Virus record (IMG/VR): IMGVR_UViG_3300013006_000023
Location: 32,001-96,000 of that record
Strand: one strand, 5' to 3'
DNA from: a virus
DNA length: 64,000 nucleotides
Shown here: piece after piece, positions 13,726 to 64,000 of the stretch
How the letters are laid out: each line of letters begins with the position of its first letter
How positions within the stretch are numbered: the stretch's first letter is position 1
Translations under genes and position numbers: made by a program
Notes under the pieces: model-generated
Told to the model about the DNA's origin: nothing
What the model saw: the letters and a program-made list of their open reading frames with translations, nothing else
The model's database searches: none

Positions 13726-14406
13726 ATTTGTGGAATATTTGGAGCCAAAGAGTTTACAGAATACGTTAAACTCTATAATTTGAACAAGAACAGGGGCACC
13801 TTTTCTTATGGTGGGCTATTGATTGATAACAAGATGCATGCCATTATTAAGAGCGCTGGAAAAATGCAGCTTAGTAAGAAGCTTGATATTGAATATGGAA
13901 AGACAAGAAAACCCATAAATACTTTCAAATATTACCTTGGCCACACACAAGCACCAACATCCTCAGAGAGAAACTACACACCTAGGACGTCACATCCTTT
14001 CTCTTTCAAAGATTGGCATGTAGCTCACAACGGTGTGCTCACCAATTACAAGCAGCTTCGTGAACTACTACCCAAGAAATCCTATAATGCAGTTGATACA
14101 TCCGTTATACCGCCTCTTCTTGACCAAGCATACAAACAAACAAAAGACGAGATTACTGCTATCCGTCATGTGCTAGGCTCACTACAAGGCACATTTGGCC
14201 TATGGATTTATAATCATAAGACACACCACATATACATAGCGCGATCTGGTAGCACCATATATGCAGATTTCCTTACAAATAGTTTTTCTTCAATAAAACA
14301 AGATAATTTTCATGAACTTGAAGAGGGATTAATTTATCTCATAACACCAGAAGGTATAACATCTGTGGGTAAATTCATACCAAATTCACCTTTCTTCACT
14401 AAATGA
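13726..14406 (+). CDS. Class II (Ntn) glutamine amidotransferase with ATT start (ORF track truncates it at 13780)
   Basis: ATT TGT GGA ATA TTT GGA = (M)CGIFG; then NKNRG, LGHTQAPT, SHPF, AHNGVLTN, LQGTFG, YIARS. Confidence 0.85.
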   Translation: MCGIFGAKEFTEYVKLYNLNKNRGTFSYGGLLIDNKMHAIIKSAGKMQLSKKLDIEYGKTRKPINTFKYYLGHTQAPTSSERNYTPRTSHPFSFKDWHVAHNGVLTNYKQLRELLPKKSYNAVDTSVIPPLLDQAYKQTKDEITAIRHVLGSLQGTFGLWIYNHKTHHIYIARSGSTIYADFLTNSFSSIKQDNFHELEEGLIYLITPEGITSVGKFIPNSPFFTK

Positions 14407-31916: not shown

Positions 31917-32465
31917 ATGGCAGACGTAAATCAACTCATTACTGACTTCTACAGAATAGCAACATCACGCGAATTTGCACGTGATTTTAACTTCAGAGTG
32001 CTCTCAATTAACACAGGTGGAGCCAGTACAGTAACATTTGATGACAGTGATTTAGTATATGTCAAGACAGCATCATTACCCGGTCGCGAGATAACAAACA
32101 TTCCAATTCCTTACATGGGATTAAATTTTAATATCCCAGGAAATGCTGTGTATCCTGAATCTAATGCATACAGTCTTACTTTCTATGCTGATTCAAAATC
32201 ACAGATAAGACAAAAATTCGAACAATGGTCAACAGATATTTTTGATGATAGCAATTCAACTGGTAATTATTTTGCACCAAAACAGACAGCTATCATAGAT
32301 TTACTTCAGCTTGATAATCAAATGAACAAAGTGGCACAATATCAATTGGTTGGTGTTTCAGTAAGAAGCGTTGGCCCTTTAACATATAATATTGCTACTG
32401 GTACTGGCGAAACAATCGAATTCACAGCAACTGTTTCCTACCATTACTGGAGAAAACTCAGCTAA
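31917..32465 (+). CDS. gp19: Tail tube protein gp19
   Basis: VKTASLPG...IPYMG...IRQKFEQW...IEFTATVSYHYW; follows sheath. Confidence 0.88.
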   Translation: MADVNQLITDFYRIATSREFARDFNFRVLSINTGGASTVTFDDSDLVYVKTASLPGREITNIPIPYMGLNFNIPGNAVYPESNAYSLTFYADSKSQIRQKFEQWSTDIFDDSNSTGNYFAPKQTAIIDLLQLDNQMNKVAQYQLVGVSVRSVGPLTYNIATGTGETIEFTATVSYHYWRKLS

Positions 32466-43085: not shown

Positions 43086-44024
43086 ATGTTAACATTTAAT
43101 AGCTTGTGGGTGGAAAAATATAGGCCTAAAAACTTAGAAGACTTTATTTGTAATGATAAAATTAAATTGTTCATCCAAACAATACAAACCCAGAAAACCA
43201 TACCTAACTTGTTGTTTGTTGGCACCCCAGGCATTGGTAAAACATCGCTTGCTAAAATAATTGTCAATGACATCTTAAAATCGCAATATCTTTACATCAA
43301 TGCTAGCGATGAAAATGGTATTGATACTATCAGAAGCAAGGTCACCAGCTTTGCACAATCAAAAAGTCTCTATGGTGATATTAAAGTAATTATTTTAGAC
43401 GAGACTGACGGTCTATCCATAGATGCACAACGCGCTTTACGCAATACTATGGAGGAGTATTCATCTATTACACGATTCATTCTTACTGCCAACTACAAAT
43501 ACAGAATTATTAATGCCCTACAAAGCAGGTGTCAAAGTTTTGACCTCACACCTCCTGTGGAAGGTTCAGTAAAAAGATGTGTACATATTCTTAAAAATGA
43601 AAAGATCGAAATACCAGCTGATCAAAAGCAACACTTGTTGTCTTTTATTAAATCTAACTATCCAGATCTCAGAAAAACGATCAATGAACTTCAAAAATAC
43701 TCAGTTAATCAGGTATTAAGCCTTGATATATCTGATAGCGATCAAACCCTTCAGTTGTTGTTCAATGAAATTAAAAGTAAAAATGTTACTACTCTCAGAA
43801 AAGTGCTTATTGAAAACGAATCTGCCTTCAATAATGATTATGTTTCGCTTCTGAGAGGACTATTTAACTATGTGGACAAGAATGAAGATGATATCAATGT
43901 TAGGAAGCAATACCTTCTGACCATATCAGAATATTTGTACAGGAGTTCATTTGTGATTGATCAGGAGATAAATTTTTACACGTGCTTGATAGCACTCTCA
44001 GAACTCAAATCAGCTCTTAGGTAA
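43086..44024 (+). CDS. gp44: Clamp loader ATPase gp44 (RFC-like)
   Basis: LWVEKYRP, GTPGIGKT, INASDENG, ILDETD, LQSRC, YPDLRKTINELQ. Confidence 0.94.
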   Translation: MLTFNSLWVEKYRPKNLEDFICNDKIKLFIQTIQTQKTIPNLLFVGTPGIGKTSLAKIIVNDILKSQYLYINASDENGIDTIRSKVTSFAQSKSLYGDIKVIILDETDGLSIDAQRALRNTMEEYSSITRFILTANYKYRIINALQSRCQSFDLTPPVEGSVKRCVHILKNEKIEIPADQKQHLLSFIKSNYPDLRKTINELQKYSVNQVLSLDISDSDQTLQLLFNEIKSKNVTTLRKVLIENESAFNNDYVSLLRGLFNYVDKNEDDINVRKQYLLTISEYLYRSSFVIDQEINFYTCLIALSELKSALR

Positions 44025-44686: not shown

Positions 44687-45169
44687 GTGGCAACTATAAA
44701 AATTAATTCCATTAAAGAGGTTAAGCCAGCACATGAAGAGTATCTTTACTCGGATCTTACTTTGGACATGGAATTTGGATACACAAAAAGTAATGAACTC
44801 CTTAAACTCAATGAAGTTAAAGATTTAAAGCTGAGCTATAATTATAATGCCATTAAAAATTCTATATTCAATTTATTCAACACATCCAAAGGTCAGAAAC
44901 CGCTCAATCCCGAATTCGGTCTAAATATAGACAGGTATCTGTTCAATGGGTTGAGTGAATCAATAGGATATGTAATAGGAAATGATATATTGGACAATAT
45001 AACCAGATTTGAACCGCGAATCAATGTTATAAATGTGGATGTTGCTGTGGATGAGCCAAATTTTCAATATATTATAACCTTGGTAGTGGTAGTACCGAAT
45101 ATTAAGAAGGATAACAGGATTAAATTAGTGGGGACACTAAGTAATTCAGGATTTAACTTCACAAATTAA
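44687..45169 (+). CDS. gp25: Baseplate wedge gp25
   Basis: AIKNSIFNLFNTSKGQKPLNPEFG...LF...ITRFEPRI. Confidence 0.92.
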   Translation: MATIKINSIKEVKPAHEEYLYSDLTLDMEFGYTKSNELLKLNEVKDLKLSYNYNAIKNSIFNLFNTSKGQKPLNPEFGLNIDRYLFNGLSESIGYVIGNDILDNITRFEPRINVINVDVAVDEPNFQYIITLVVVVPNIKKDNRIKLVGTLSNSGFNFTN

Positions 45170-45170
45170 T

Positions 45171-47024
45171 ATGGCAACATTCGAACAATTTCCTTTGCTT
45201 AAAAACGAGTATGTAGCTTTTGATGCTACTAGCTTGAAGTCATTAATCACTACCAGATTAAACAGCAAGCAGATATTCACAGATCAAAATTTCGAGGGCA
45301 GCAATATTTCCTCTGTAATTGACATTGTTGCGTATGCATACAATGTTTTAATCTTTTATCTCAATCAAACTGCCTCAGAAAGTACTTTTACCACTGCAGA
45401 ATTGTACGAAAATATTAATAAAATTGTAAAACTACTAAGCTACAAACCAATAGGATCACAAACACCCATATTGCCTTTTCTAGCCACTGGTCAGCCAGCA
45501 TTGCTTGCAAATATCTATACAATTCCAAGATACAGTTATTTCACTATCAATGGCTACAATTATTCATTCAATAACGACATATCTTTCTTCAAGACTACAA
45601 ATGCTTCAGAAGTATTAACTGATTTACAAGATAATAACTTACTTTATCAAGGAACGTTCACTGAATACCCCATTTATACTGCAACTGGTGAGCCTTACGA
45701 GGTATTAACCATCTCCATAGTAGATAATGATAATAACAATGCTATTATTGATCATTTTAATGTGGATGTGTATGTGAAAGATAATGCCACTCCCAATGCT
45801 AAATGGGAAAAATGGGCACCAGTGCAGTCGTTGTTCTTGCAACGCTCCAATTCCACGTCATATGAAATTAGATTGAATGAAAACGAAAGATACGAGATAA
45901 AGTTTGGCAACAACGTCACTGGTAAAAAATTAAATGCTGGTGATCAAGTTGCCATTTATTATCTAAAGAGTGATGGCAGTAAAGGCGAAGTAGGACCTGG
46001 GCTATTAAACAATAACAAATTGTTTTTCTTCAACACGCCAAATTTTGCACAAGTAAAAATTGATACAACTCCGGAGAATCTTAACATCATAACTGCTCAA
46101 CAAGCTGCGCTTATTAATTTTACAAATATTGACGGCTCAACCACATACATAGAAAGAGAGAGTGTGAGCCGCATAAAAGAAAATTCCATCAATACATTCA
46201 GAAGTCAATATAGACTCATAACCAGTGATGATTTTATTAGCTATGTTTCTAAAAATTACAGTAATATTATTTCATCTGTGTATGCAGTCAATAATTGGGA
46301 CTATATATCTGGTCATTTAAAGTATTACTTTGATTTAGGCATAACTAATCCAAACAATACAAGTAGAGTATTCTTTAACCAAGTAAAATTTGCTGATTCA
46401 TGTAATTTTAACAACGTCTACATTTATGCTGTACCCAAATTAGAAAAGTTAACATCACTTACATCAAGATCCAATTATTTAAACGCCTCACAGAAGCAGC
46501 TATTGTTAAATGACCTGCAGCAAGTCAAACTTACAACATCAGAAGTAATAATTAATGACCCTGTGTATGTAGCTGTTGATGTAGGCACTAGCTTCAATAA
46601 TGAAACCCTTTCACCCGCCATTGCAGACACATCTTTTATTGAAATCTCAAGAGACATTACTTCAAAAAGAAATCCAGAAGCACTTAAAAAGCTTATAACT
46701 AAAATATTTACTGATTATTTTTCTACTCTTAACAATAACTTAGGTGCCACCATAAGTCTTACTAACATATCCAATCAAATAAGAGCTCTTGAAGGTGTAA
46801 CTGATGTGAAGACCAAAAGAATCCAAGGTGAAAATACTATAGAAGTAAATGGCATTAATTTATTGGTCTATAACCCCGTCTACCCATTCAAAGACATATC
46901 AATTATAGCACAAGATACAAAATTACCTTATTTTAAATATCCATACTTAAACAACGTCCTTGATTTTGGCAATAAGATAAGAATTGTTACTCCTTCTATA
47001 CAAACTATAACTAAGGAGTATTAA
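45171..47024 (+). CDS. gp6: Baseplate wedge gp6
   Basis: FDATSLK...FTDQNFEGSNISSVIDIVAY...ESTFTTA...YEIKFGNNVTGK...QYRLITSDDF. Confidence 0.9.
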   Translation: MATFEQFPLLKNEYVAFDATSLKSLITTRLNSKQIFTDQNFEGSNISSVIDIVAYAYNVLIFYLNQTASESTFTTAELYENINKIVKLLSYKPIGSQTPILPFLATGQPALLANIYTIPRYSYFTINGYNYSFNNDISFFKTTNASEVLTDLQDNNLLYQGTFTEYPIYTATGEPYEVLTISIVDNDNNNAIIDHFNVDVYVKDNATPNAKWEKWAPVQSLFLQRSNSTSYEIRLNENERYEIKFGNNVTGKKLNAGDQVAIYYLKSDGSKGEVGPGLLNNNKLFFFNTPNFAQVKIDTTPENLNIITAQQAALINFTNIDGSTTYIERESVSRIKENSINTFRSQYRLITSDDFISYVSKNYSNIISSVYAVNNWDYISGHLKYYFDLGITNPNNTSRVFFNQVKFADSCNFNNVYIYAVPKLEKLTSLTSRSNYLNASQKQLLLNDLQQVKLTTSEVIINDPVYVAVDVGTSFNNETLSPAIADTSFIEISRDITSKRNPEALKKLITKIFTDYFSTLNNNLGATISLTNISNQIRALEGVTDVKTKRIQGENTIEVNGINLLVYNPVYPFKDISIIAQDTKLPYFKYPYLNNVLDFGNKIRIVTPSIQTITKEY

Positions 47025-53632: not shown

Positions 53633-56600
53633 ATGAATGTACTTCCAGAAAAAATTCGTCTCAATGTAGGCCATCCTGCAAATGTATTAGCAGATTTGAC
53701 TTACAATTATTCGCTTTGCGCGCCCATCTTAAGTTCAATCACTAATGTGCCGCTCCCAGGTTACATTGGCTATTATTTTAATGACGGTAATACTACGAGA
53801 AGATATGCTGCACTAATATATACTACTCAAGATCAATATATATATTCACCGACCAGACAATTAAGCGCAAACAGATGGAATCTAATTTATGGTTTTACAT
53901 CACCTATTAATAATGTTTACGATACCCACACACATACTGATCCTCAACCTATTAATACATCTAGCCCAATTAATAATTATGTAACATTGACTGGTTGGGG
54001 ATTCACAAGAAATATAACCACACTTTCAGGCAGGAAAATACACATAACTTACAATGATTTCAATTGGTATGATATTAATACTGTGCTGGTACAGAATATC
54101 ACAGGTAATTTTACACAATTCAACGGTGTTTACACATATGCGCCGGGTTCACTATCAGGTGTATATGTAAAAGAACTTTATTTGGATCAGTATGGTGTAC
54201 CATATTATGCAGCATTGACATATGTAAAAGATTTTTACTATGGAAATAATCTATGGGCTTTCGGTGAAGGGTATTTAGGTTCCTATAGTTATATATTTTC
54301 AGCTGCAAATGTTTTTCCAATATTGTCTTCATCTGCAATAGTGCCCACAACAGGTTACAGTTATTTTTCATTTCATGGCTTAGATGTAAATCAAAGTCGA
54401 TATGCTTCTTTTGCATATGATCGCATTCAGCCTACACCCACACCCACACCCACTCAAACACCTACACAGACACCCACCAACACACAAACTCCTTCACAGA
54501 CACCCACGCGTACACAGACACCTACACAGACACCCACCAACACACAAACTCCTTCACAGACACCTACCAATACGCAGACACCTTCCAATACCCCCACACA
54601 GACACCCACTCCCACCATCACCAATGTAGGTGTGCAATCTCTTTCATCACTGCCTACAACAGATCCTTCATCAAAAACATCTACTGTAGCTTTGTCAAGT
54701 TTTGTTATCAATCCAACTGATGATGACATATTTTCATTTCAATGCGCACATTATGGCCCCACATTGAGTGGGTGTGAAGGGTTTTCACTATTTTTCATAG
54801 ATACAACTCTACCACCACAACAAAGATATGATGGTGCACCATTGAGAGGCTTGGGGTACAGCAGTCTCATACTCAGAGACGCTGGATTCATAAAAGTTTA
54901 TTTGGGAGTGGAGAATGGTGTGTTTGGAATTGGTTTTGATTCTTCTGGCAATTTTGGCTTGAGTTCAGCTGGTGTATTAGGTTATGGCAAACCCATACCC
55001 AACAGTGTCACACTCAGATCATCAATAAACAATAAATTTGTTCCATTATACAGAACAGAAGACTTATCTAATGAATATTTAGATGAACCCTTCTCCATGT
55101 ATCAACAGCTAACTGGCAGCCCGCAATTCACAGATTACAGAATACGATTCTCAAATTTTGGTAAAACAATCTTTTTAGATTTTAAAAACAGAGAAATATT
55201 TAGAAACATCTTAAAATATGATTTTGCAACTGCTCTGCCTTCCATCATGCCATCAATAGGATTCTCTGCTCTGTCTGGTTCTAAATTGGCTGTCAGAGGA
55301 TTCAATTATAACGGCAATCTCATTCCATTAACACCCACACCCACCCCTTCTATAACACCTTCACGGACACCCACTCAAACTCCAACAACTACCAGAACAC
55401 CCACACCTACTAGAACACTTACACCTACACCTTCCATGACACCTTCCATAACACCTACACCTTCCATAACACCTTCACGGACACCCACTCAAACACCCAC
55501 ACCCACTAGAACACCCACCCCCACTGTAACACCCACACTTCCTGACAACCGAGTATTTTATGCTGATTTTGCCAACACTTTAAGCTATCCAGGCACTGGT
55601 ACCCTTGTTCAGAATTTGAAGAGTTTGTCCAATTATGCAACCTTGACTAATGGATTTTATCCCATTACCAGTTATGGAGGTGGCATACATGTTATTTCTT
55701 CAAATGGTTTTACATTTGATTACCCGGGTTTCACTTGGAATCAATTGGGATTGAACAACAACTTCACTGTTAACATGTGGCTGCAATTGAGCAGTTATCC
55801 ACAAGAATATTTCCGATCATTGTTCAGCAGTGAAAGCTACCAGTTGAGTGGGTTCAGATGCTTTCTAGGAGGCTCTGGCTCTGGTAGCTTGCAAGGTAGA
55901 CTAGTCTTTGGTAATGGTGAAAGTTTATCTTCTACAGATTCTCCAGCATTCGCTGTGCAACCGGCAACTGTGGTGCCTCTCAACACACCAGTCAATCTCA
56001 CATTCACAGTGGCTCCATGTGGTGGACCTCTTGGAGTAGTGGCCAGTGTGTACATGAATGGCATGATGGCAGCATCTGCCTCTGGCAATTTCCGATCACC
56101 ATGGAACACCACAATCAGACTATTCAGCATTGGTGGCTGGAAACCAGCAGAGTGTGATTTCTTTTTAGCAGAGTATGCCACAGGAGCACAGCCTTCATGG
56201 CAAGTTAAGGACAGATACAACCAATATGCACCTCGCTTTAGACCTGCTGTTTATAATTATATTACATTTACAGGTGAAATTATTCCAATAGTAGCACCAC
56301 AAACCCCTAACTATTTAATTGTATCAACAGATGTACAAACATTCAGCGCTACTTTCGATTCACAAATACTAGGCATATCAAATAATTTCGATACTAACAA
56401 TTTTACCAACTGTAACCTTACTTTTAATTACAGCGCCGGTCTATCGGCTAATAAACAGGTTGTATATACTACACAAAACGCTACAATTTCTAGTAATTTA
56501 GGCAATTTATATACTTTGTATTACACAAATACCGGTTCAATTATATTAGGTTTTGCTGTCAGCAATTTAAATGTCCCGCCTATAACAAGCTACCCACCCC

Positions 56601-58201
56601 CTTCTCCAACCCCCACCCAGACACCTACTCAAACACCCACCCCCACCCAGACACCTACTCAAACACCCACACCCACACCTACTCCTACAATAACACCCAC
56701 TCCTTCTACCACACCGTCTTTGGCTAATAACATATGTGTGTCAGGAGCTGGAACTGAAGAGGCAAATGGAACTTATGCATATGACCCCAACTTCAATGCC
56801 AATCCCGGAAAGAAGGTTTGGTTAAGATTTCAGCCTTTAGGACCCCCCTACAGTTACGGTGTGACTTATGACGAGGCCCAGGGTCGGTGGGTTTTAGGTG
56901 TTTACTTTGTTTTATCTTTGCAAACTACTCTTTACTCCAACTCTGCTCCCAATTCAGTAAACCCACCGCAATCTGGATGGGTTGTTGACTCTGGGACTGT
57001 GCCTGCACCCACCATCGCTCATGCAGCATGTCCTACACCCACACCTACAGTTACACCTACAGTTACACCTACAGTTACACCAACTGTCACACCAACTCTC
57101 ATACCGCCGCCCCCATCTTACCAATACTATGGCACAGGATCCAATCTCTATGGACAATTAGGATTGGGCGACACAACTCAATTTAACACATTCACTGCAT
57201 TGACTGGCAATTGGTCACAAGTTGCATGTGGTGGCAATCATACCATGGCATTGTCAGCAGGTACTAATAACCAATGGTTTGCCGCAGGGTACAATCAATA
57301 TGGTCAATTGGGATTGGGCAACAGTGGTGCAGGTACCAACAGAAACACCTTCACTGCATTGACTGGCAATTGGGCACAGATTGCATGTGGTACCTATCAC
57401 ACCATGGCATTAAGTGCTGGCACTAATGCATTGTTTGGCACAGGATTCAATGTCAGTGGTCAATTGGGATTGAGCGACACAGTGCAAAGAACCACATTCA
57501 CACAATTGACTGGCAATTGGTCACAGGTGGCATGTGGTAGCCAGCACACCATGGCATTGTCAGCAGGTACTAATAACCAATGGTTTGCCGCAGGATTAAA
57601 TAATGATGGTCAATTGGGATTGGGCAACAGTGGTGTAGGTACCAACAGAACCACATTCACACAATTGACAGGCAATTGGTCGCAAATCATATGTGCTAAT
57701 GGTGGCGAACACACCATGGCATTGTCAGCAGGTACTAATAACCAATGGTTTGCCGCAGGATTCAATGGCTCTGGTCAATTGGGATTGGGCAACAACACAC
57801 TGAGAAACACATTCACTGCATTGACTGGCAATTGGTCACAAGTTGCATGTGGTGCCTATCACACCATGGCATTGAGTGCTGGCACTAATGCATTATTTGC
57901 CACAGGATCCAATCTCTATGGACAATTAGGATTGGGCAACAGTGGTGCAGGTACCAACAGAAACACCTTCACTGCATTGACTGGCAATTGGTCACAGATT
58001 GCATGTGGTACCTATCACACCATGGCGTTGAGTGCTGGTACTACACAGTGGTTTGCCACAGGGTACAATCTATATGGTCAATTGGGATTGGGCAACAGTG
58101 GTGCAGGTACCAACAGAACCACATTCACACAATTGACTGGTAATTGGTCACAGGTGGCATGTGGTAGCCAGCACACCATGGCATTGAGTAGTACACTATA
58201 A
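53633..58201 (+). CDS. Modular tail fibre / adhesin: Pro-Thr linkers, L-type lectin, LamG/ConA-like and 7x RCC1 domains
   Basis: GCEGFSLFF...GLGYS...GIGFDSSGN (legume lectin); SYPGTGT...FTVNMW...VYMNG (LamG); GxNxxGQLGLG...CGxxHTMAL x7. Confidence 0.8.
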   Translation: MNVLPEKIRLNVGHPANVLADLTYNYSLCAPILSSITNVPLPGYIGYYFNDGNTTRRYAALIYTTQDQYIYSPTRQLSANRWNLIYGFTSPINNVYDTHTHTDPQPINTSSPINNYVTLTGWGFTRNITTLSGRKIHITYNDFNWYDINTVLVQNITGNFTQFNGVYTYAPGSLSGVYVKELYLDQYGVPYYAALTYVKDFYYGNNLWAFGEGYLGSYSYIFSAANVFPILSSSAIVPTTGYSYFSFHGLDVNQSRYASFAYDRIQPTPTPTPTQTPTQTPTNTQTPSQTPTRTQTPTQTPTNTQTPSQTPTNTQTPSNTPTQTPTPTITNVGVQSLSSLPTTDPSSKTSTVALSSFVINPTDDDIFSFQCAHYGPTLSGCEGFSLFFIDTTLPPQQRYDGAPLRGLGYSSLILRDAGFIKVYLGVENGVFGIGFDSSGNFGLSSAGVLGYGKPIPNSVTLRSSINNKFVPLYRTEDLSNEYLDEPFSMYQQLTGSPQFTDYRIRFSNFGKTIFLDFKNREIFRNILKYDFATALPSIMPSIGFSALSGSKLAVRGFNYNGNLIPLTPTPTPSITPSRTPTQTPTTTRTPTPTRTLTPTPSMTPSITPTPSITPSRTPTQTPTPTRTPTPTVTPTLPDNRVFYADFANTLSYPGTGTLVQNLKSLSNYATLTNGFYPITSYGGGIHVISSNGFTFDYPGFTWNQLGLNNNFTVNMWLQLSSYPQEYFRSLFSSESYQLSGFRCFLGGSGSGSLQGRLVFGNGESLSSTDSPAFAVQPATVVPLNTPVNLTFTVAPCGGPLGVVASVYMNGMMAASASGNFRSPWNTTIRLFSIGGWKPAECDFFLAEYATGAQPSWQVKDRYNQYAPRFRPAVYNYITFTGEIIPIVAPQTPNYLIVSTDVQTFSATFDSQILGISNNFDTNNFTNCNLTFNYSAGLSANKQVVYTTQNATISSNLGNLYTLYYTNTGSIILGFAVSNLNVPPITSYPPPSPTPTQTPTQTPTPTQTPTQTPTPTPTPTITPTPSTTPSLANNICVSGAGTEEANGTYAYDPNFNANPGKKVWLRFQPLGPPYSYGVTYDEAQGRWVLGVYFVLSLQTTLYSNSAPNSVNPPQSGWVVDSGTVPAPTIAHAACPTPTPTVTPTVTPTVTPTVTPTLIPPPPSYQYYGTGSNLYGQLGLGDTTQFNTFTALTGNWSQVACGGNHTMALSAGTNNQWFAAGYNQYGQLGLGNSGAGTNRNTFTALTGNWAQIACGTYHTMALSAGTNALFGTGFNVSGQLGLSDTVQRTTFTQLTGNWSQVACGSQHTMALSAGTNNQWFAAGLNNDGQLGLGNSGVGTNRTTFTQLTGNWSQIICANGGEHTMALSAGTNNQWFAAGFNGSGQLGLGNNTLRNTFTALTGNWSQVACGAYHTMALSAGTNALFATGSNLYGQLGLGNSGAGTNRNTFTALTGNWSQIACGTYHTMALSAGTTQWFATGYNLYGQLGLGNSGAGTNRTTFTQLTGNWSQVACGSQHTMALSSTL
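54431..54623 (+). repeat. Pro/Thr/Gln linker 1 with a near-perfect 60-bp tandem duplication
   Basis: 54461-54520 vs 54521-54580 nearly identical; encodes (TQTP[ST]QTPT[NR])n. Confidence 0.9.
55325..55543 (+). repeat. Pro/Thr linker 2
   Basis: PTPTPSITPSRTPTQTPT... tandem low-complexity repeats. Confidence 0.9.
56594..56718 (+). repeat. Pro/Thr linker 3
   Basis: PPPSPTPTQTPTQTPT...; 30-bp duplication ccccacccagacacctactcaaacacccac. Confidence 0.9.
57032..57117 (+). repeat. Pro/Thr linker 4
   Basis: 12-bp unit acacctacagtt x3 encoding TPTV. Confidence 0.9.
57128..58198 (+). repeat. Seven tandem RCC1/BLIP-II-type repeats (~147-165 bp each)
   Basis: Near-identical at DNA level (ggtcaattgggattgggc, ttgactggcaattggtcaca, caccatggcattg). 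Confidence 0.92.
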
Positions 58202-58209
58202 CTCTATTC

Positions 58210-58237
58210 TTGATTTAAGACTATTTTATATTAAAAT
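58210..58237 (+). promoter_or_regulatory. Sigma70-like early promoter for the GT60 gene
   Basis: TTGATT-N16-TAAAAT, 6 nt before GTG 58244. Confidence 0.6.
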
Positions 58238-58243
58238 ATTCTT

Positions 58244-59515
58244 GTGAAAAAACAGCTCAACGAAAAGATATTTATTTCCATTGCTTCATACAGAGACCCA
58301 CAATTGTTGCCAACCTTAAGAGATTGTATTGCCAATGCTAAGCATCCCGAAAATTTAGTTTTTGGCATAGCTTGGCAAAGAGATGACAAGGAATCGTTGG
58401 AAGAATTTGCCAAAGACAAGAGATTCAGAGTGCTGGACATACCTTACAAAGAAAGCAAAGGCACTTGTTGGGCCAGAAGCAGCATACAAGGATTGTATAA
58501 AAACGAAAAGTATCACCTACAGCTTGACAGTCATCATCGGTTTGTCAAGGACTGGGATGAAAAATGCATTGCCATGATCAAAGCTTTGCAAGACAAAGGC
58601 CATGAAAAGCCTTTGCTAACAGGTTATATATCCAGTTTTGATCCAGATAATGATCCACAAGCACGCATCAATATTCCATGGAAAATGAATTTTGATAGGT
58701 TTATTCCAGAGGGTGCAGTGTTCTTTCTGCCTGCTTCAATTGATGAATACAAATCTCTCACACTGCCAGTACCAGGTCGCTTTGTATCAGCTCATTTCAT
58801 CTTCACCCTGGGCCAGTGGATCAAAGAAGTGCCATATGATCCATTCTATTACTTCCATGGTGAAGAGATAAACCTGGCTGTGAGGTCATACACCCATGGG
58901 TATGACATATTTCATCCTCATATTGTTGTGGCTTGGCATGAGTATACACGCAAAGGCAGGACCAAGCATTGGGATGATATCACTGATTGGGGTCAAATGA
59001 ACACTTCATCTCATGCACGCAACCGCAAGTTGTTTGAAATGGATGGTGAAAAGAAGGACATCGATTTTGGCATATACGATTTTGGCAAGACAAGATCATT
59101 AGCAGATTATGAGAAGTATTCTGGTCTTTGCTTTAAAAAGCGTGCAGTGCAACGTCACACTCTTGACAATCTGTATGCACCCAACCCCAATTCCACATTA
59201 ACACCAGAAGAATATGACAAGTCTTTCTTAAGAATCTTCAAACATTGCATTGATGTTGGTTATGACAAAGTGCCAGAAAAAGATTATGATTTTTGGTGTG
59301 TGGCATTCAAAGATAAATCAGGCAAAGATGTGTACCGCAAAGATGCCGATCCAGAAGAAATTAAGAGAATGCTCAATGATCCCGACAAATATTGCAAAGT
59401 GTGGAGAGAGTTCAATGCAGAAGAAACACCACACAGTTGGATTGTGTGGCCACATAGCTTATCAAAAGGCTGGGCTGAACCCATAGTAGGCTACCTGGGC
59501 AATGCTGTAAGCTAG
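58244..59515 (+). CDS. GT60-like polypeptide alpha-GlcNAc transferase (Gnt1/OGNT family)
   Basis: IFISIASYRDPQL, SKGTCWARS, LQLDSHHRFVKDWD (DSH motif), EVPYDP..YFHGEE..LAVRSYTHGYDIF.P. Confidence 0.85.
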   Translation: MKKQLNEKIFISIASYRDPQLLPTLRDCIANAKHPENLVFGIAWQRDDKESLEEFAKDKRFRVLDIPYKESKGTCWARSSIQGLYKNEKYHLQLDSHHRFVKDWDEKCIAMIKALQDKGHEKPLLTGYISSFDPDNDPQARINIPWKMNFDRFIPEGAVFFLPASIDEYKSLTLPVPGRFVSAHFIFTLGQWIKEVPYDPFYYFHGEEINLAVRSYTHGYDIFHPHIVVAWHEYTRKGRTKHWDDITDWGQMNTSSHARNRKLFEMDGEKKDIDFGIYDFGKTRSLADYEKYSGLCFKKRAVQRHTLDNLYAPNPNSTLTPEEYDKSFLRIFKHCIDVGYDKVPEKDYDFWCVAFKDKSGKDVYRKDADPEEIKRMLNDPDKYCKVWREFNAEETPHSWIVWPHSLSKGWAEPIVGYLGNAVS

Positions 59516-59523
59516 TATAAATA
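59516..59523 (+). promoter_or_regulatory. Late promoter TATAAATA
   Basis: Exact consensus, 7 nt before ATG 59531. Confidence 0.65.
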
Positions 59524-59530
59524 AGTACTA

Positions 59531-60313
59531 ATGAACAAGTTTTGTTTTGCTACAGAAGCAACATACCCCAATTACACAAAACGCATAAAAGAAAACATTC
59601 TGGGCGATTATTTGCATCTGGAGTTGGATAAAAAAAATGTGCCTTTCATAGTATCCACCAACAGGCCTGAAGATTTTGGAGAATTCAAAGATCACCCCAC
59701 CATAAAAGTCTTTCATATTGACGATTTACGCAAAGATGCACCTGAATCTCTTGAATATGAATTGCTCCCTGAGAATCCTGCAGGCATTTATCCAAGCAGA
59801 TACCCTTTCAACACAAGAAGATTCACATTAAAAAAAGCTGTTGAATTAGGATGCAATTCTTGTTATTATTTTGAAGCTGATATCAAGGTTAACCGTGGAT
59901 TGAATTTTACAAGTGATAGTTTTTTTAATTTCTTAAATGATATATATGCACCCAACACTCTAACCACCAACACAACAATTTTTAGATACAAAAACTTAAA
60001 ACCCGATGATGTATTTAATTTTCACGGTCAATACATTGAAAAATTTGGATACAATTTTAAACCTGATCAATATGACACTGTTGACGGCACACTTCAATTT
60101 TACATGGGTGAAACATGTGACTCTCTATTAAACTTTTATAACACATGGAATGACTTGGCATTATTTGGATACAGAAATGCTGTAAACGGAGGCTATGGCT
60201 ACAAGAACAATGCACATGGCGTTCTTTCATTTGCCATACCAGCATCAAACTTTACCTTGAGGGAATATGGTCTCCCATTTTATGCTGATCACCATCCAGA
60301 TGAAAGATACTAG
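59531..60313 (+). CDS. Putative GT-A fold glycosyltransferase
   Basis: FIVSTNRPEDF, RYPFNTRRFTLKKA, YYFEADIKV (DxD-like), GVLSFAI; cluster context. Confidence 0.55.
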   Translation: MNKFCFATEATYPNYTKRIKENILGDYLHLELDKKNVPFIVSTNRPEDFGEFKDHPTIKVFHIDDLRKDAPESLEYELLPENPAGIYPSRYPFNTRRFTLKKAVELGCNSCYYFEADIKVNRGLNFTSDSFFNFLNDIYAPNTLTTNTTIFRYKNLKPDDVFNFHGQYIEKFGYNFKPDQYDTVDGTLQFYMGETCDSLLNFYNTWNDLALFGYRNAVNGGYGYKNNAHGVLSFAIPASNFTLREYGLPFYADHHPDERY

Positions 60314-60969
60314 TGAAACTTTTAAGGAAAATTGTAGATAAAATTTCATTGCATAATGATTTTACCTTAGTAAGTGTGGGTGCCAACAACGGGCTATTTG
60401 TTGAAGAATTGGTTTATTTTGACATTCTTAAAAAAGATTGGAATTGCTTGTTCATAGAACCTGTGAAAGAATCTTTTGATAAATTAATTGAAAATTATAA
60501 TGAACACTACCCTTTGAATAACTTTAAATATGAAAATAGTGCCATTTTTATTGAAGATGGTACAGGAGAGCTAATTACTCATAAGAATGATGATTCGTTT
60601 GGCATGTGCTCTTTTTTTCGTCATAAAAATACTAATTCGGTGAGCATACCTGTTAATTTAAAAACATTTAAAACAATCTTAGATAAACATGAAATAAAAC
60701 ATGTGGATTTTTTAAAGGTTGATTGCGAGGGTTTTGATTATGAAGTTATCCTGCAACTGCTGGACATGCAAATACTTCCAAAGCTTATTTTATTTGAGGA
60801 TATTATGCTTGGTGCAACTCCAAATGATGTAATTAAAGGTGTCAGAGGTAAATCTGAATGCTTGACTGTGTTGAGGGCATTAAGATACAAAATTATTACT
60901 GATGTACCTGAAGTGGAATTTGAATCATCCAATATGTTTGCAGTGAGAAATGATATAAATATTGAGTAA
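60313..60969 (+). CDS. FkbM-family methyltransferase
   Basis: VSVGANNG, FIEPV, ENSAI, VDFLKVDCEGFDYEVI, ILFE. Confidence 0.88.
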   Translation: MKLLRKIVDKISLHNDFTLVSVGANNGLFVEELVYFDILKKDWNCLFIEPVKESFDKLIENYNEHYPLNNFKYENSAIFIEDGTGELITHKNDDSFGMCSFFRHKNTNSVSIPVNLKTFKTILDKHEIKHVDFLKVDCEGFDYEVILQLLDMQILPKLILFEDIMLGATPNDVIKGVRGKSECLTVLRALRYKIITDVPEVEFESSNMFAVRNDINIE

Positions 60970-60971
60970 CC

Positions 60972-62516
60972 ATGAGCAACAAACTGGAATGTGCAGATTT
61001 ATTTTCCATATGCAATGTTAGTTTTGCAGATACAGGATTTTACGTAAATCTATGCGAATCCACAGAAAGAAAAGCTAATGTTGATGAGCAAATTAAAAAA
61101 TTTCAAATAACTGGTTTAAATAGATTTGAAGCATTAAAAGATGAATTGCGTCAAAGTTCTGCAACAAAAAGCCAAAGAGCGGTTTTTGAACAAGCAATTA
61201 AAAACGGTAATGATGTTGTCTTTGTGGCAGAAGATGATTTTCACATATTGGACACAATAACTCCTCATAATAAACCACGTATTCCCATTGAGGAACATTT
61301 ATGCATGTTAAAACAAGAGTTGGATACTCTGGATTGGGATGTGTTTTTGTTTGGTTGTTGCCCGCGATCACATTTAATACCATACACACAAAATATAAGT
61401 CTTGTGCACAAAAGCACAGGAGCATGGGCTTACTTAATAAAGAACAAAGCCATGCAATATATTTTGGATAATTTCCATTACACAAGAGATTATTTGGCCA
61501 TTGATGACATTCTACCGTTGCTCAATTTCAGAGGATTCAAAACGTTTTGCGCTTCACCCATAACAATACATCATGAAGTGGGGTTTGTGTCCACACTCAA
61601 TCCTCAAGGCCCTGTAAACTATGATAACATGATAAATGGATGCTATGCAAAATACCAGAGTTACAGTGATGATAATTATTTGACAGATTATGATTTTGCA
61701 CGCAACACAACCATAGTAATTGCTGGTCACTTTGCAGATAATTTTTTATTTTACTTGAGATACTTGCTTCACAGTCTGCCTGAAGCACTTAAGAAATGTA
61801 AATTTTTAATTTATTATGATCATGATCCTAGGGTTGATAACCCAGTACTCTCGTTAATACATTACTTCTACAACCGAAATGACTATCTAACACACAACAT
61901 TAAGTTTGTTAAATATGGATTAATTGACATATTTAAAACAGCATTGGATGATATAACCACACCATATTTTATTTTCTTAGAACATGATTGGGTTTTTCTT
62001 GATAAAAATAAAATTAACTTCAATTCACTGGTGAGTGCATTCAATAACAACAATTTTGTGCATTCAGTTTATTTTAACAAGGACGATAATAACATGCGCG
62101 GTTTTGATATATGCAAAGATGCTTGTGGTGACACAACACCATTTGAGAGAGACATCAGAGTCAGTGAGACTGATCTTGTAACAACTTGCCGCTGGTCCAA
62201 CAACCCTGCAATGCATAGAACAAGCAAATTTAAAGAATGGTATGATGTGCATTTGGCTCATGTGCATGGCAACACAGGTCATGGTCAGCATGATGTGGAA
62301 GAGAATATGATACCCATATACAGAAAAGCAATTGAAACGTCCAAATGGACAGACATCAGGGACAATTGGGGAACATTTTTATATGGTAATATTGGTGATG
62401 GTCCCTATGTTGGTCATACAGATGGCACCAGAAGATACACTACCACTGCACGATCACAGCCAGAAATTAATGGTGATGCATATATTGAAAACAATCCTTT
62501 ACCGCAGCAAGACTAA
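60972..62516 (+). CDS. Bifunctional glycosyltransferase, GT25-like + GT2-like
   Basis: FYVNL...ERK...RFEA...VAEDD...GAWAYLI (GT25); second domain YFIFLEHDWVF...WSNNP...YVGHTDG. Confidence 0.8.
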   Translation: MSNKLECADLFSICNVSFADTGFYVNLCESTERKANVDEQIKKFQITGLNRFEALKDELRQSSATKSQRAVFEQAIKNGNDVVFVAEDDFHILDTITPHNKPRIPIEEHLCMLKQELDTLDWDVFLFGCCPRSHLIPYTQNISLVHKSTGAWAYLIKNKAMQYILDNFHYTRDYLAIDDILPLLNFRGFKTFCASPITIHHEVGFVSTLNPQGPVNYDNMINGCYAKYQSYSDDNYLTDYDFARNTTIVIAGHFADNFLFYLRYLLHSLPEALKKCKFLIYYDHDPRVDNPVLSLIHYFYNRNDYLTHNIKFVKYGLIDIFKTALDDITTPYFIFLEHDWVFLDKNKINFNSLVSAFNNNNFVHSVYFNKDDNNMRGFDICKDACGDTTPFERDIRVSETDLVTTCRWSNNPAMHRTSKFKEWYDVHLAHVHGNTGHGQHDVEENMIPIYRKAIETSKWTDIRDNWGTFLYGNIGDGPYVGHTDGTRRYTTTARSQPEINGDAYIENNPLPQQD

Positions 62517-62519
62517 TAG

Positions 62520-62547
62520 TTGATATTGAAATAAAAATATATAAAAT
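62520..62547 (+). promoter_or_regulatory. Sigma70-like early promoter
   Basis: TTGATA-N16-TAAAAT, 5 nt before ATG 62553. Confidence 0.6.
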
Positions 62548-62552
62548 ATTTT

Positions 62553-64000
62553 ATGTCCTTTTGCACAGCGGATAGGCTTTTATCAAGACCCAACAAGAGC
62601 GTTGATGCCAGCATCATTTCACACGAACAGATCAAGCACCTCATTACATTTCTTGAACAAGCGGTTACAGAGAACATAGAAGGTGATGTGGTTGAATTTG
62701 GTTGTTATGTGGGCGAATCATCCAAATATCTGAGAATGATGCTTGATGAGCTCAAGAGCAATAAAGAATTGCATGTGTATGATTCTTTTGAAGGATTGCC
62801 TCAATTGAGTGAACATGAAAAAAACACTGCATGGAGACCAGGCACTCTCAAATCAACTGTTGAAATTCTGGAACAAAATTTTGAACAAAACGGTCTCAAG
62901 AAACCTGTTATCACAAAAGGGTGGTTTAAAGATGTTGCAGATGCTGACATCCCATCCAAAATATCATTTGCATTTCTTGATGGTGATTTTTATGAATCAA
63001 TATATGATTCTCTTCAAAAAATTTATGACAGAGTTAGCGATGGCGGTTTCATTGTATTTCATGATTACAAAAGACCTGACCTGCCTGGAGTAGAAAAAGC
63101 TGCATGGGATTTCTTTTATACCAAAAATGTATTTCCTAACATAACTGTTGTATGTGAGCAGCTTGGTGTGTATCGCAAGAATGCCACAGTGAAAGTCATC
63201 ACTGAAACTCCCAAATATGAAAATCCAATCACACTGGTCACAGGCATCTGGGATCTGGGCAGAGGGCAACTCACTGAAGGATGGTCTCGTAATTATTCGC
63301 ACTACCTAGATAATTTCAACAAACTACTCCAAGTTGAAAACAATTTAATTATTTTTGGTGACAAAGAACTCAGAGATATAGTTTACAAAGTTAGAAGCGA
63401 TAAAAATACACAATTCATTGAGAGACCCTTGGAATGGTTTAAGGATAACCAATATTATCCGTTGATACAGAAGCTCAGAACCGATCCAAATTGGTTCAAT
63501 CTGGCAGGCTGGCTCACGGAATCAACACAGGCAAAGCTGGACATGTACAATCCCTTGGTAATGTCCAAGATGTTCATGCTTAATGATGCTAAAATCATGG
63601 ACAAGTTTGATTCTAAGTTCTTATTCTGGCTGGATGGTGGCATAACCAACACTGTGCATCCTGGATACTTCACTCATGACAAGGTGTTCAATAACCTGGA
63701 GAAGTACATCACCAAATTTTCTTTCATCTGTTTTCCGTATGAGGCCAATAATGAGATTCATGGCTTCAAGTTTGATGAAATCAATAAACTAGCAGGCACC
63801 ACAGTGAAGAAAGTTGCAAGGGGTGGATTGTTTGGTGGACCCAAGGACAGCATTTCTGATATTAACACAATATATTACAATCTTCTCATGGGCACTCTTG
63901 ACTCAGGTCTAATGGGCACAGAAGAATCCATATTTAGCATCATAACATACAAATATGGAGACAAGGTTAACTATTTTGAGATTAATTCAGATGGTTTGTT
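62553..64000 (+). CDS. Partial: TylF/MycF-type sugar O-methyltransferase fused to an HtrL/YibB-like domain (runs off right edge; absent from ORF track)
   Basis: Manual translation: EGDVVEFGCYVG, YDSFEGLP, KGWF, FLDGDFYES, GGFIVFHDY, PGVEKA; then ITLVTGIWDLGR, YNPLVMSKMF, FWLDGG, RGGLFGG, GTEESIF. Confidence 0.85.
   Translation, partial: MSFCTADRLLSRPNKSVDASIISHEQIKHLITFLEQAVTENIEGDVVEFGCYVGESSKYLRMMLDELKSNKELHVYDSFEGLPQLSEHEKNTAWRPGTLKSTVEILEQNFEQNGLKKPVITKGWFKDVADADIPSKISFAFLDGDFYESIYDSLQKIYDRVSDGGFIVFHDYKRPDLPGVEKAAWDFFYTKNVFPNITVVCEQLGVYRKNATVKVITETPKYENPITLVTGIWDLGRGQLTEGWSRNYSHYLDNFNKLLQVENNLIIFGDKELRDIVYKVRSDKNTQFIERPLEWFKDNQYYPLIQKLRTDPNWFNLAGWLTESTQAKLDMYNPLVMSKMFMLNDAKIMDKFDSKFLFWLDGGITNTVHPGYFTHDKVFNNLEKYITKFSFICFPYEANNEIHGFKFDEINKLAGTTVKKVARGGLFGGPKDSISDINTIYYNLLMGTLDSGLMGTEESIFSIITYKYGDKVNYFEINSDGL

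Follow-up and report, generated by a model that had tools for sequence, protein, structure and literature searches.

Why a T4-like phage should carry a gene for a GT60-family glycosyltransferase directly behind the gene for a proline- and threonine-rich, fibre-like protein is the question raised by the final 10 kb of the DNA analysed here. This DNA (the window, 64,000 nucleotides (nt) in length) comprises positions 32,001 to 96,000 (C1:32001-96000) of the IMG/VR virus record IMGVR_UViG_3300013006_000023, which is 107,651 bp long, has a CheckV completeness of approximately 51% and extends 11.6 kb past the end of the window (L003). The answer favoured by the evidence below is that the soluble GT60 enzyme (P0002) probably starts O-glycans on Thr/Ser residues within Pro/Thr (PT) linkers of virion proteins, and that a conserved two-domain glycosyltransferase (GT), together with a variable set of glycosyltransferases and methyltransferases, extends and caps them.

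The GT60 enzyme and its candidate acceptors

The gene for P0002 (58244..59515; this and the other parts of the locus within the window lie on the plus strand) begins with GTG and is separated by 42 bp (58202-58243) from the preceding gene, P0001. The protein matched PF11397 ('GlcNAc') with E = 4.9e-70 (237.2 bits against a gathering cut-off of 21), a match recovered again in a six-frame search, and matched phrog_24687 with E = 3.9e-167. GT60 comprises protist polypeptide alpha-GlcNAc (N-acetylglucosamine) transferases (the Golgi enzymes of T. cruzi and Dictyostelium) and the Skp1 hydroxyproline GlcNAc-transferase Gnt1; P0002 is presumed to be an initiating polypeptide O-HexNAc (N-acetylhexosamine) transferase. 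Searches with phmmer and with GT60 profiles against PDB sequences produced nothing useful, and structure prediction was therefore needed. The AlphaFold2 (AF2) model (pLDDT 88, pTM 0.87) resembled polypeptide GalNAc (N-acetylgalactosamine) transferases (ppGalNAc-Ts) in all of the top 29 rows returned by VIA-align (Z 19-22, root-mean-square deviation ~3.5 Å, 270-285 residues), with generic GT-A and GT2 enzymes coming next at Z ~16. Similarly, ppGalNAc-Ts filled all of the top 50 ranks among the Foldseek matches listed. No solved GT60 chain stood among the structure matches listed, and the likeness is thus to the sister family GT27.

The residues D95-S96-H97 (the DSH motif) and H232 did not vary across 14 diverse homologues with identities as low as 39%; H232 may be the third metal ligand. 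A conserved, beta-rich C-terminal domain follows at approximately aa 330-420 (59234-59503), with the motifs FKHCID...DYDFWCVAFKD...VWPHS. These C-terminal ~90 aa were left uncovered by most structure alignments, and searches with the whole model gave no match there. The domain is missing from the GT60 of the L040 lineage and from a short bacterial paralogue. Two other phage records depart from the single-gene arrangement: one (G073, C1:69469-71633) has two tandem GT60 paralogues, while in the other (G067, C1:15212-15970) GT60 lies within an open frame of 820 aa, a possible fusion.

P0001 (53633..58201; 1522 aa) starts 4 nt past the stop codon of the preceding baseplate-module gene and is presumed to be a fibre or adhesin. 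It is modular, in the manner of 'beads on a string'. Four Pro/Thr tracts, at 54425..54625 (aa 265-331), 55322..55546 (aa 564-638), 56576..56728 (aa 982-1032) and 57026..57118 (aa 1132-1162), are accompanied by a Laminin_G_3, or concanavalin A (ConA)-like lectin, domain at 55742..56137 (aa ~704-835; PF13385, E = 1.4e-6, 28.9 bits against a cut-off of 27.6 with the domain searched alone) and by a C-terminal RCC1-like beta-propeller at 57119..58198, consisting of ~6.5 repeats of 156 nt (PF25390, 3.4e-55; PF00415, 3.1e-42). Only aa ~359-561 are common to relatives. The preliminary description of this locus, which was made from the DNA letters, had noted the four tracts and the GT60 gene 42 bp further on, and the map of open reading frames (ORFs), the translations and the PF11397 match bear this out.

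P0001 is one of several such proteins. Four further PT-tract ORFs lie downstream, past the window end, and encode 384 aa, 379 aa (of which 248 aa are tract), 167 aa and at least 328 aa, while the contig's first 85 kb contain none. When the 107.6-kb contig was scanned with a DNA pattern for (TP[ST]x)2TP, all 41 matches fell within C1:86434-107425, in five ORFs flanking the cluster; the reversed-pattern control gave 0 matches in the contig. With PT proteins both upstream and downstream, candidate acceptors are therefore present on both sides of the cluster. The tracts of the five proteins total 715 residues, of which 39% are Thr, 27% Pro and 9% Ser (342 Ser/Thr). Their codons vary and their periods, as found by TRF, are imperfect (12-60 nt); therefore, selection appears to act on the peptide.

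Two of the ORFs at the downstream end show an unusual layout. D1 is a PT-rich ORF of 384 aa that breaks off at the beginning of an RCC1-like repeat, and D2, with 457 aa, is weakly RCC1-like. The two occupy C1:96930-99461 (L003:6930-9461) in the same frame, one TAA and one codon apart. The layout is identical in a 96%-identical relative (L004), and in other relatives a single fused ORF of ~840 aa is found; this could reflect a recent split or stop-codon readthrough. Low-complexity tracts other than PT were seen at two GT60 loci, namely a collagen-like Gly-Thr/Ser repeat immediately upstream of GT60 (L031:1-840), and TTTAPI and ESTT repeats near GT60 (L040:5226-6026 and 13729-14394). These may be alternative types of acceptor.

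Co-occurrence of GT60 and Pro/Thr tracts

Comparison of GT60 with PT-rich genes across phage genomes, proposed earlier as a check on the glycosylation reading, gave a positive result by three independent routes. When IMG/VR was searched with the GT60 protein, 39 loci were obtained, approximately 20 of which keep the order gp6-U1155-U1042-PT protein-GT60-[variable genes]-P6-PT protein D1-D3-D4, where P6 denotes aa 224-780 of the last cluster protein, P0006. GT60 and the P6 part occurred together in 35 of the 39 loci. The intervening genes P0003, P0004 and P0005 and the TylF domain of P0006 were sporadic, and in relatives the variable stretch encoded GT10-like and GT1/4-like transferases, an RMNT_CmcI rhamnosyl O-methyltransferase and FkbM. 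Judged from gene content, the arrangement is that of a conserved putative initiator and a conserved partner bracketing a variable, presumably glycan-tailoring, set. The full pathway envisaged in the preliminary description needs correction in this respect: GT60 and the two-GT-A part make up the conserved core, while FkbM, TylF and the two middle glycosyltransferase genes are variable, and the initiate-extend-cap order is a proposed one.

Close relatives were collected with an alignment of U1042 orthologues, which gave 80 loci; a search with the single U1042 sequence had given one relative only. In the U1042 tree, three clades, including that of the window, were PT-positive and GT60-positive wherever sequence suffices, while a 15-row clade and the outer clades had neither. 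There were 44 relatives with a U1042 orthologue and known states for both traits; 22 had GT60 and PT tracts, 22 had neither and none was discordant. Each trait required three changes on the tree, and these changes coincided. All 11 of the GT60-positive records tested for the PT pattern contained it. Conversely, PF11397 was absent from the 27 records with zero PT-pattern matches, which include records of 193, 119, 117, 116 and 112 kb (the first being 88% complete).

In the reverse test, IMG/VR records of at least 40 kb were chosen solely for a four-unit (TP[ST]x)3TP tract, the scan returning an arbitrary set of contigs. PF11397 was present in 14 of 36 PT-selected records (39%) and in none of 36 PT-free records (Fisher p = 2.5e-5, uncorrected for ancestry). 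A small reversed-pattern control, in which 13 of 30 records were searched, had GT60 in 1 of the 13, a record with 6 PT matches, and in 0 of 9 PT-free records. A U1042 orthologue was not found in the GT60-positive records of the reverse test, by a search that had no positive control; on this absence, these records, which include genomes of 311 and 321 kb, are taken to be other lineages. In 11 of 15 GT60-positive records from the reverse test a PT ORF lay no more than 9 kb away, often abutting the GT60/P6 pair, and the P6 partner was present in 12 of the 15.

Among isolates, the GT60 gene was carried only by XacN1, Xoo-sp13, CM1 and RAS14, all of which are jumbo phages. The two searched for the PT pattern gave 29 matches (XacN1) and 25 matches (RAS14). 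In the Xanthomonas phage XacN1, GT60 is ORF334, which is 47.6% identical to P0002; it is clustered with a carbamoyltransferase, two ORFs and a P6-like gene (ORF330), and opposite these lie GT9, ORF325 (3313 aa, with a TPTPTPTP tract) and baseplate-wedge genes. At least two glycoproteins of XacN1 virions were Schiff-stained in an earlier study, the authors of which suggested that the phage's own glycosyltransferases make them (PMC5852040, Suppl. Fig. S4). No paper linking GT60 to phages was found in the literature.

The pairing extends to bacteria. Among GTDB species genomes, more than 540 stretches encode full-length GT60 relatives, many on contigs of megabase scale, in Bacteroidota, Gemmatimonadota, Acidobacteriota, Verrucomicrobiota, Proteobacteria and Actinomycetota. 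A PT-tract ORF was found within 10 kb in 33 of 55 bacterial loci of at least 12 kb, often adjacent to GT60, a count which stop-to-stop ORFs in high-GC DNA may inflate; a P6-like gene was present in 21 of the 55. In the isolate Jiulongibacter sediminis (L396:4943-15145), genes for UDP-glucose dehydrogenase and a short-chain dehydrogenase/reductase (SDR) epimerase/dehydratase accompany a short GT60 paralogue, a 262-aa PT protein, GT60, a carbamoyltransferase and a 780-aa FkbM-HtrL-GT fusion. The N-terminus of the PT protein resembles a twin-arginine signal (RRLALREL...). A NodU/CmcH-type carbamoyltransferase adjoins GT60 both here (L396:11235-12806) and in XacN1 (219791-222088), which suggests that the glycans of these two would be carbamoylated rather than methylated. 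The system, for which the preliminary description knew of no counterpart among T4-like phages, is by gene content apparently not specific to such phages, being found also in jumbo phages and bacterial chromosomes.

Cluster genes, genomic setting and alternative readings

Between GT60 and P0006 lie three variable members of the cluster. P0003 (59531..60313; 260 aa), a probable GT-A nucleotide-sugar transferase present in few relatives only, had ESM-Atlas look-alikes in clusters of nucleotide-diphospho-sugar transferases (TM-score 0.6-0.75); Pfam gave no match up to E = 10, and its profile gave chance matches only against PDB. P0004 (60313..60969) is an FkbM-family methyltransferase (FkbM/Methyltransf_21, 3.1e-14). 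P0005 (60972..62516; 514 aa) is a probable fusion of a GT25-like domain and a second GT domain. Its Atlas look-alike cluster was annotated GT25 (97%) and GT2 (52%), with a score of 0.94; Pfam, searched to E = 10, reported GT25 only at E = 0.52, and the profile against PDB again returned chance matches only. Because neither Pfam nor the PDB profiles gave a significant match, the glycosyltransferase labels of P0003 and P0005 stay leads.

P0006 (62553..64000) is cut by the window end; the full protein has 780 aa (L003:4553-6895) and comprises a TylF-type O-methyltransferase domain (aa 16-201; 2e-30), an HtrL_YibB domain of GT-A fold (aa ~224-491; 5e-14) and a second GT-A domain (aa ~504-780). A model of aa 215-780 (pLDDT 82.9) contained two GT-A domains in one chain. 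The HtrL part was closest to GT6 enzymes (Z ~13) and the last domain to B4GALNT1, POMGNT1 and GnT-I (Z ~15), while structural matches across both domains included LARGE1, LH3, COLGALT1, Mimivirus R699 and K4CP. No transmembrane (TM) segment was detected in the five cluster enzymes, the highest 19-residue hydropathy being no more than 1.28. Pfam families for a lipid-carrier-linked initiating transferase, a flippase or a polymerase were not found in the cluster.

Sigma70-like boxes, which are consensus matches only, precede two of the genes: TTGATT-16-TAAAAT (58210..58237) ends 6 nt before the GTG of GT60 and TTGATA-16-TAAAAT (62520..62547) ends 5 nt before the ATG of P0006. The late-type box TATAAATA occurs at 59516..59523, 7 nt before the ATG of P0003, and at 60954..60961, 10 nt before the ATG of P0005; the same box is found just before the structural gene D3. 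Scanning the window for sigma70-like boxes found 54 where 51.8 were expected, which is the chance level, and the TATAAATA scan was likewise at chance window-wide; only positions right before start codons count, and these are no more than suggestive. The pattern may fit enzymes that are present before and during late protein synthesis. Here the claims of the preliminary description fared unevenly. Its FkbM gene and TylF-HtrL fusion were confirmed by Pfam, with a further GT-A domain added by the full protein. The genes it called a 'GT-A enzyme' and a 'GT25-GT2 fusion' are present, although these labels are weaker, depending on Atlas look-alikes and the marginal GT25 match. Its early-type promoters before GT60 and the TylF gene correspond to actual boxes, at a frequency expected by chance, and the late-type boxes at P0003 and P0005 had been overlooked.

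The phage is T4-like, with genes for the gp44 clamp loader (43086-44024), gp25 (44687-45169) and gp6 (45171-47024), although its gp6 and the gp6 of cyanomyoviruses share only 26-28% identity. Megablast found no match to the region among isolate phages. The psbA gene (PF00124) was not found in the contig, and there is therefore no evidence for a cyanobacterial host. The gene order is gp25-gp6-U1155-U1042-[PT fibre-GT cluster-PT proteins]-D3-D4, as kept in the approximately 20 relatives; no function could be assigned from PHROGs or Pfam to U1155, U1042, D2-D4 or D6. The glycosyltransferase genes are thus embedded among structural genes, a feature expected of a phage virion glycosylation system.

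An alternative is that the cluster remodels a surface glycan of the host during infection (lipopolysaccharide (LPS) core or O-antigen, capsule or S-layer glycan), the PT linkers being plain, unglycosylated spacers. This reading can point to HtrL_YibB and GT25, two families that owe their names to LPS clusters, to the sigma70-like boxes in front of GT60 and P0006, and to the glycosyltransferase sets or 'LPS genes' of large cyanomyoviruses, which have been read as host-surface remodelling (PMC12801897). However, this explanation leaves unaccounted for both the tight co-occurrence of GT60 with PT tracts and the placement of the cluster in the fibre module; the membrane-bound initiating transferase, flippase, polymerase and TM segments are missing, and the fold of P0002 is closest to polypeptide transferases. 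It is accordingly considered unlikely.

GT60 and the PT-linker genes might instead travel together as one hypervariable fibre cassette, or as a trait of low-GC freshwater phages, with no relation of enzyme and substrate. The genes are adjacent in the clade of the window, where they resemble an insertion between U1042 and D3; nearly all of the viral matches have 31-36% GC, and the independent transitions are few. Yet a distance of ~30 kb separates the GT60 cluster from the PT fibres in two records (G007 and G011), and the link is therefore not mere adjacency. Moreover, PT tracts are spread over many loci in G001-G003, XacN1 and RAS14, PT-free and PT-rich relatives come from identical samples (e.g., 3300010885), and the pairing recurs in high-GC bacterial chromosomes. 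Hitch-hiking or a shared habitat is for these reasons quite improbable as the explanation.

A third possibility concerns the chemistry of the acceptor: tract prolines could first be hydroxylated, and GlcNAc then added by GT60 to hydroxyproline, as by Gnt1. The family does include Gnt1, which is soluble and cytoplasmic; P0002 is also soluble and the tracts are 27% Pro. Against this, neither the contig nor five GT60-positive phage genomes, all complete or nearly so, yielded a gene of the prolyl-hydroxylase type PF13640 (a host enzyme or another hydroxylase family being possible), and Thr, at 39%, is the commonest tract residue. Direct O-glycosylation of Thr/Ser is favoured because of these two observations, and the Skp1-type route appears very unlikely. 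Phage glycosyltransferases often act on DNA, and the last GT-A domain of P0006 weakly matches a TET-associated glycosyltransferase (TAGT; E = 5.5e-4, below the cut-off), but glycosylation of phage DNA (hypermodified bases) or of another non-virion target is extremely improbable and was rejected as the main reading, as the match is sub-threshold and reflects the common, generic GT-A fold, the cluster lies in the structural and not the replication module, and the association with PT tracts would go unexplained.

Glycosylation, by the cluster, of PT linkers in fibre proteins and in baseplate-associated proteins of the phage itself therefore remains the preferred explanation, and from it we infer a sugar, an acceptor residue, an order of steps, a location in the virion and a benefit. 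All of the enzymes would be soluble and act in the cytoplasm of the infected cell. P0002 would transfer the first sugar, judged by family and fold to be most likely a HexNAc from a UDP-sugar, onto Thr/Ser of the TP/TxTP tracts, and the two-GT-A part of P0006 would add the next sugar or sugars. The variable glycosyltransferases (P0003 and P0005; GT10-like and GT1/4-like in relatives) and sugar O-methyltransferases (FkbM and TylF; RMNT_CmcI in relatives) would together diversify and cap the glycan. Linkers glycosylated in this way would be stiff, extended and protease-resistant spacers between the ConA-like and RCC1 binding domains. The glycosylation proposed in the preliminary description agrees with the co-occurrence, the ppGalNAc-T fold and the XacN1 glycostain, but its target, a single fibre, is widened to at least five PT proteins around the cluster.

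Several points weigh against this explanation. With only two or three independent pairs (approximately three coupled changes) in the U1042 tree, a sign test cannot reach significance, and the PT-selected sample, analysed without phylogenetic correction, holds at least one near-duplicate pair (L362/L369). Five records with a completeness of 94-100% (G042, G051, G052, G053 and G065) have PT tracts but lack GT60; GT60 is therefore not required for tracts, and the link is strong rather than obligatory. One GT60-positive record that is 98% complete (G004) has one PT match only. The sigma70-like boxes at GT60 and P0006 would also fit early expression directed at a host target. P0001 is presumed to be a fibre from gene position and domain types, the PT proteins are putative virion proteins, and glycosylation is a prediction for this phage. 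Finally, the XacN1 study names neither the stained proteins, nor an enzyme or family, nor the acceptors, nor a link to PT tracts (PMC5852040).

Significance and comparison with known systems

The comparative data tie GT60, the sister family of the mucin initiators, to a simple acceptor signature, Pro/Thr tracts, and do so across many large aquatic phages, cultured jumbo phages of Xanthomonas and Stenotrophomonas, and bacteria. If the explanation is true, the linkers of fibres, usually taken for inert spacers, would carry glycans, with consequences for how antigenicity, the stability of particles and the recognition of hosts by phages are viewed. Such phages could then be picked out by a one-line rule, PF11397 plus PT tracts, and a cultured phage such as XacN1 would allow ideas on how mucin-type O-glycosylation arose to be tested. 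A more far-reaching proposal, which is offered tentatively, is that GT60, its two-GT-A partner and the PT-tract proteins might constitute a widespread, undescribed, cytoplasmic 'mucin-type' O-glycosylation system of prokaryotes, distributed over many bacterial phyla and several lineages of large phages. With it, phages would surround the linkers of their fibres with sleeves of methylated glycans that can be diversified. The eukaryotic GT60/GT27 initiators would then have a counterpart in prokaryotes, from which they might even derive.

P0002 is like the known enzymes of CAZy GT60/PF11397 in its strong membership by hidden Markov model and in its GT-A fold with a DxH motif; it shares solubility with Gnt1, and its Thr/Pro-rich candidate acceptors resemble protist mucins. 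It differs in its prokaryotic-virus context, in having no membrane anchor, in its extra conserved C-terminal domain of ~90 aa and in that no prolyl hydroxylase partner was found. Among solved structures, the ppGalNAc-Ts of GT27 come closest (Z 19-22 across ~280 residues), and they prefer Thr with Pro nearby; however, their identity to P0002 is only 12-16%, no ricin-type lectin domain was recognised with the whole model of P0002, and the phage enzyme would be cytoplasmic rather than Golgi-resident. P0006 shares its two-GT-A chain with bifunctional enzymes of the LARGE1, LH3, K4CP and PmHS2 type, although polymerase activity is not implied. The O-glycosylated PT linkers of bacterial cellulases and of actinobacterial Pmt substrates resist proteolysis, but are glycosylated during or after export by membrane enzymes of the Pmt type and not by a soluble GT60.

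Glycosylation of virion proteins by virus-encoded enzymes is established for chloroviruses, mimiviruses and some mycobacteriophages, and is regarded as rare in phages. The glycans of Vp54 in chlorovirus PBCV-1 and of the Mimivirus fibrils are virus-made and partly methylated, and are attached to proteins of the particle within the cytoplasm of the host; Mimivirus R699 is itself among the two-domain structural matches of P0006. The giant viruses differ in having eukaryotic hosts, other initiating enzymes and other types of linkage. XacN1 resembles the window phage in having a GT60 homologue and a P6-like ORF near baseplate genes, and differs in being a RaK2-like jumbo phage of 50% GC, with a carbamoyltransferase in place of the methyltransferases. 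In mycobacteriophages, as is proposed here, structural proteins of the phage itself are the substrates of phage-encoded glycosyltransferases; the glycans are O-linked and sit on exposed protein tails (Freeman et al. 2023, cited in PMC12619734 and PMC12801897). The acceptors in mycobacteriophages are the C-termini of capsid and tail-tube subunits (as quoted in PMC12619734), whereas here fibre-like proteins would be modified on their internal PT linkers, with a GT60 as the lead enzyme. The kind of system is thus a known one, virus-encoded glycosylation of particle proteins; its new elements, which the present data support in part, would be the family of the lead enzyme, GT60, and a recognisable acceptor signature.

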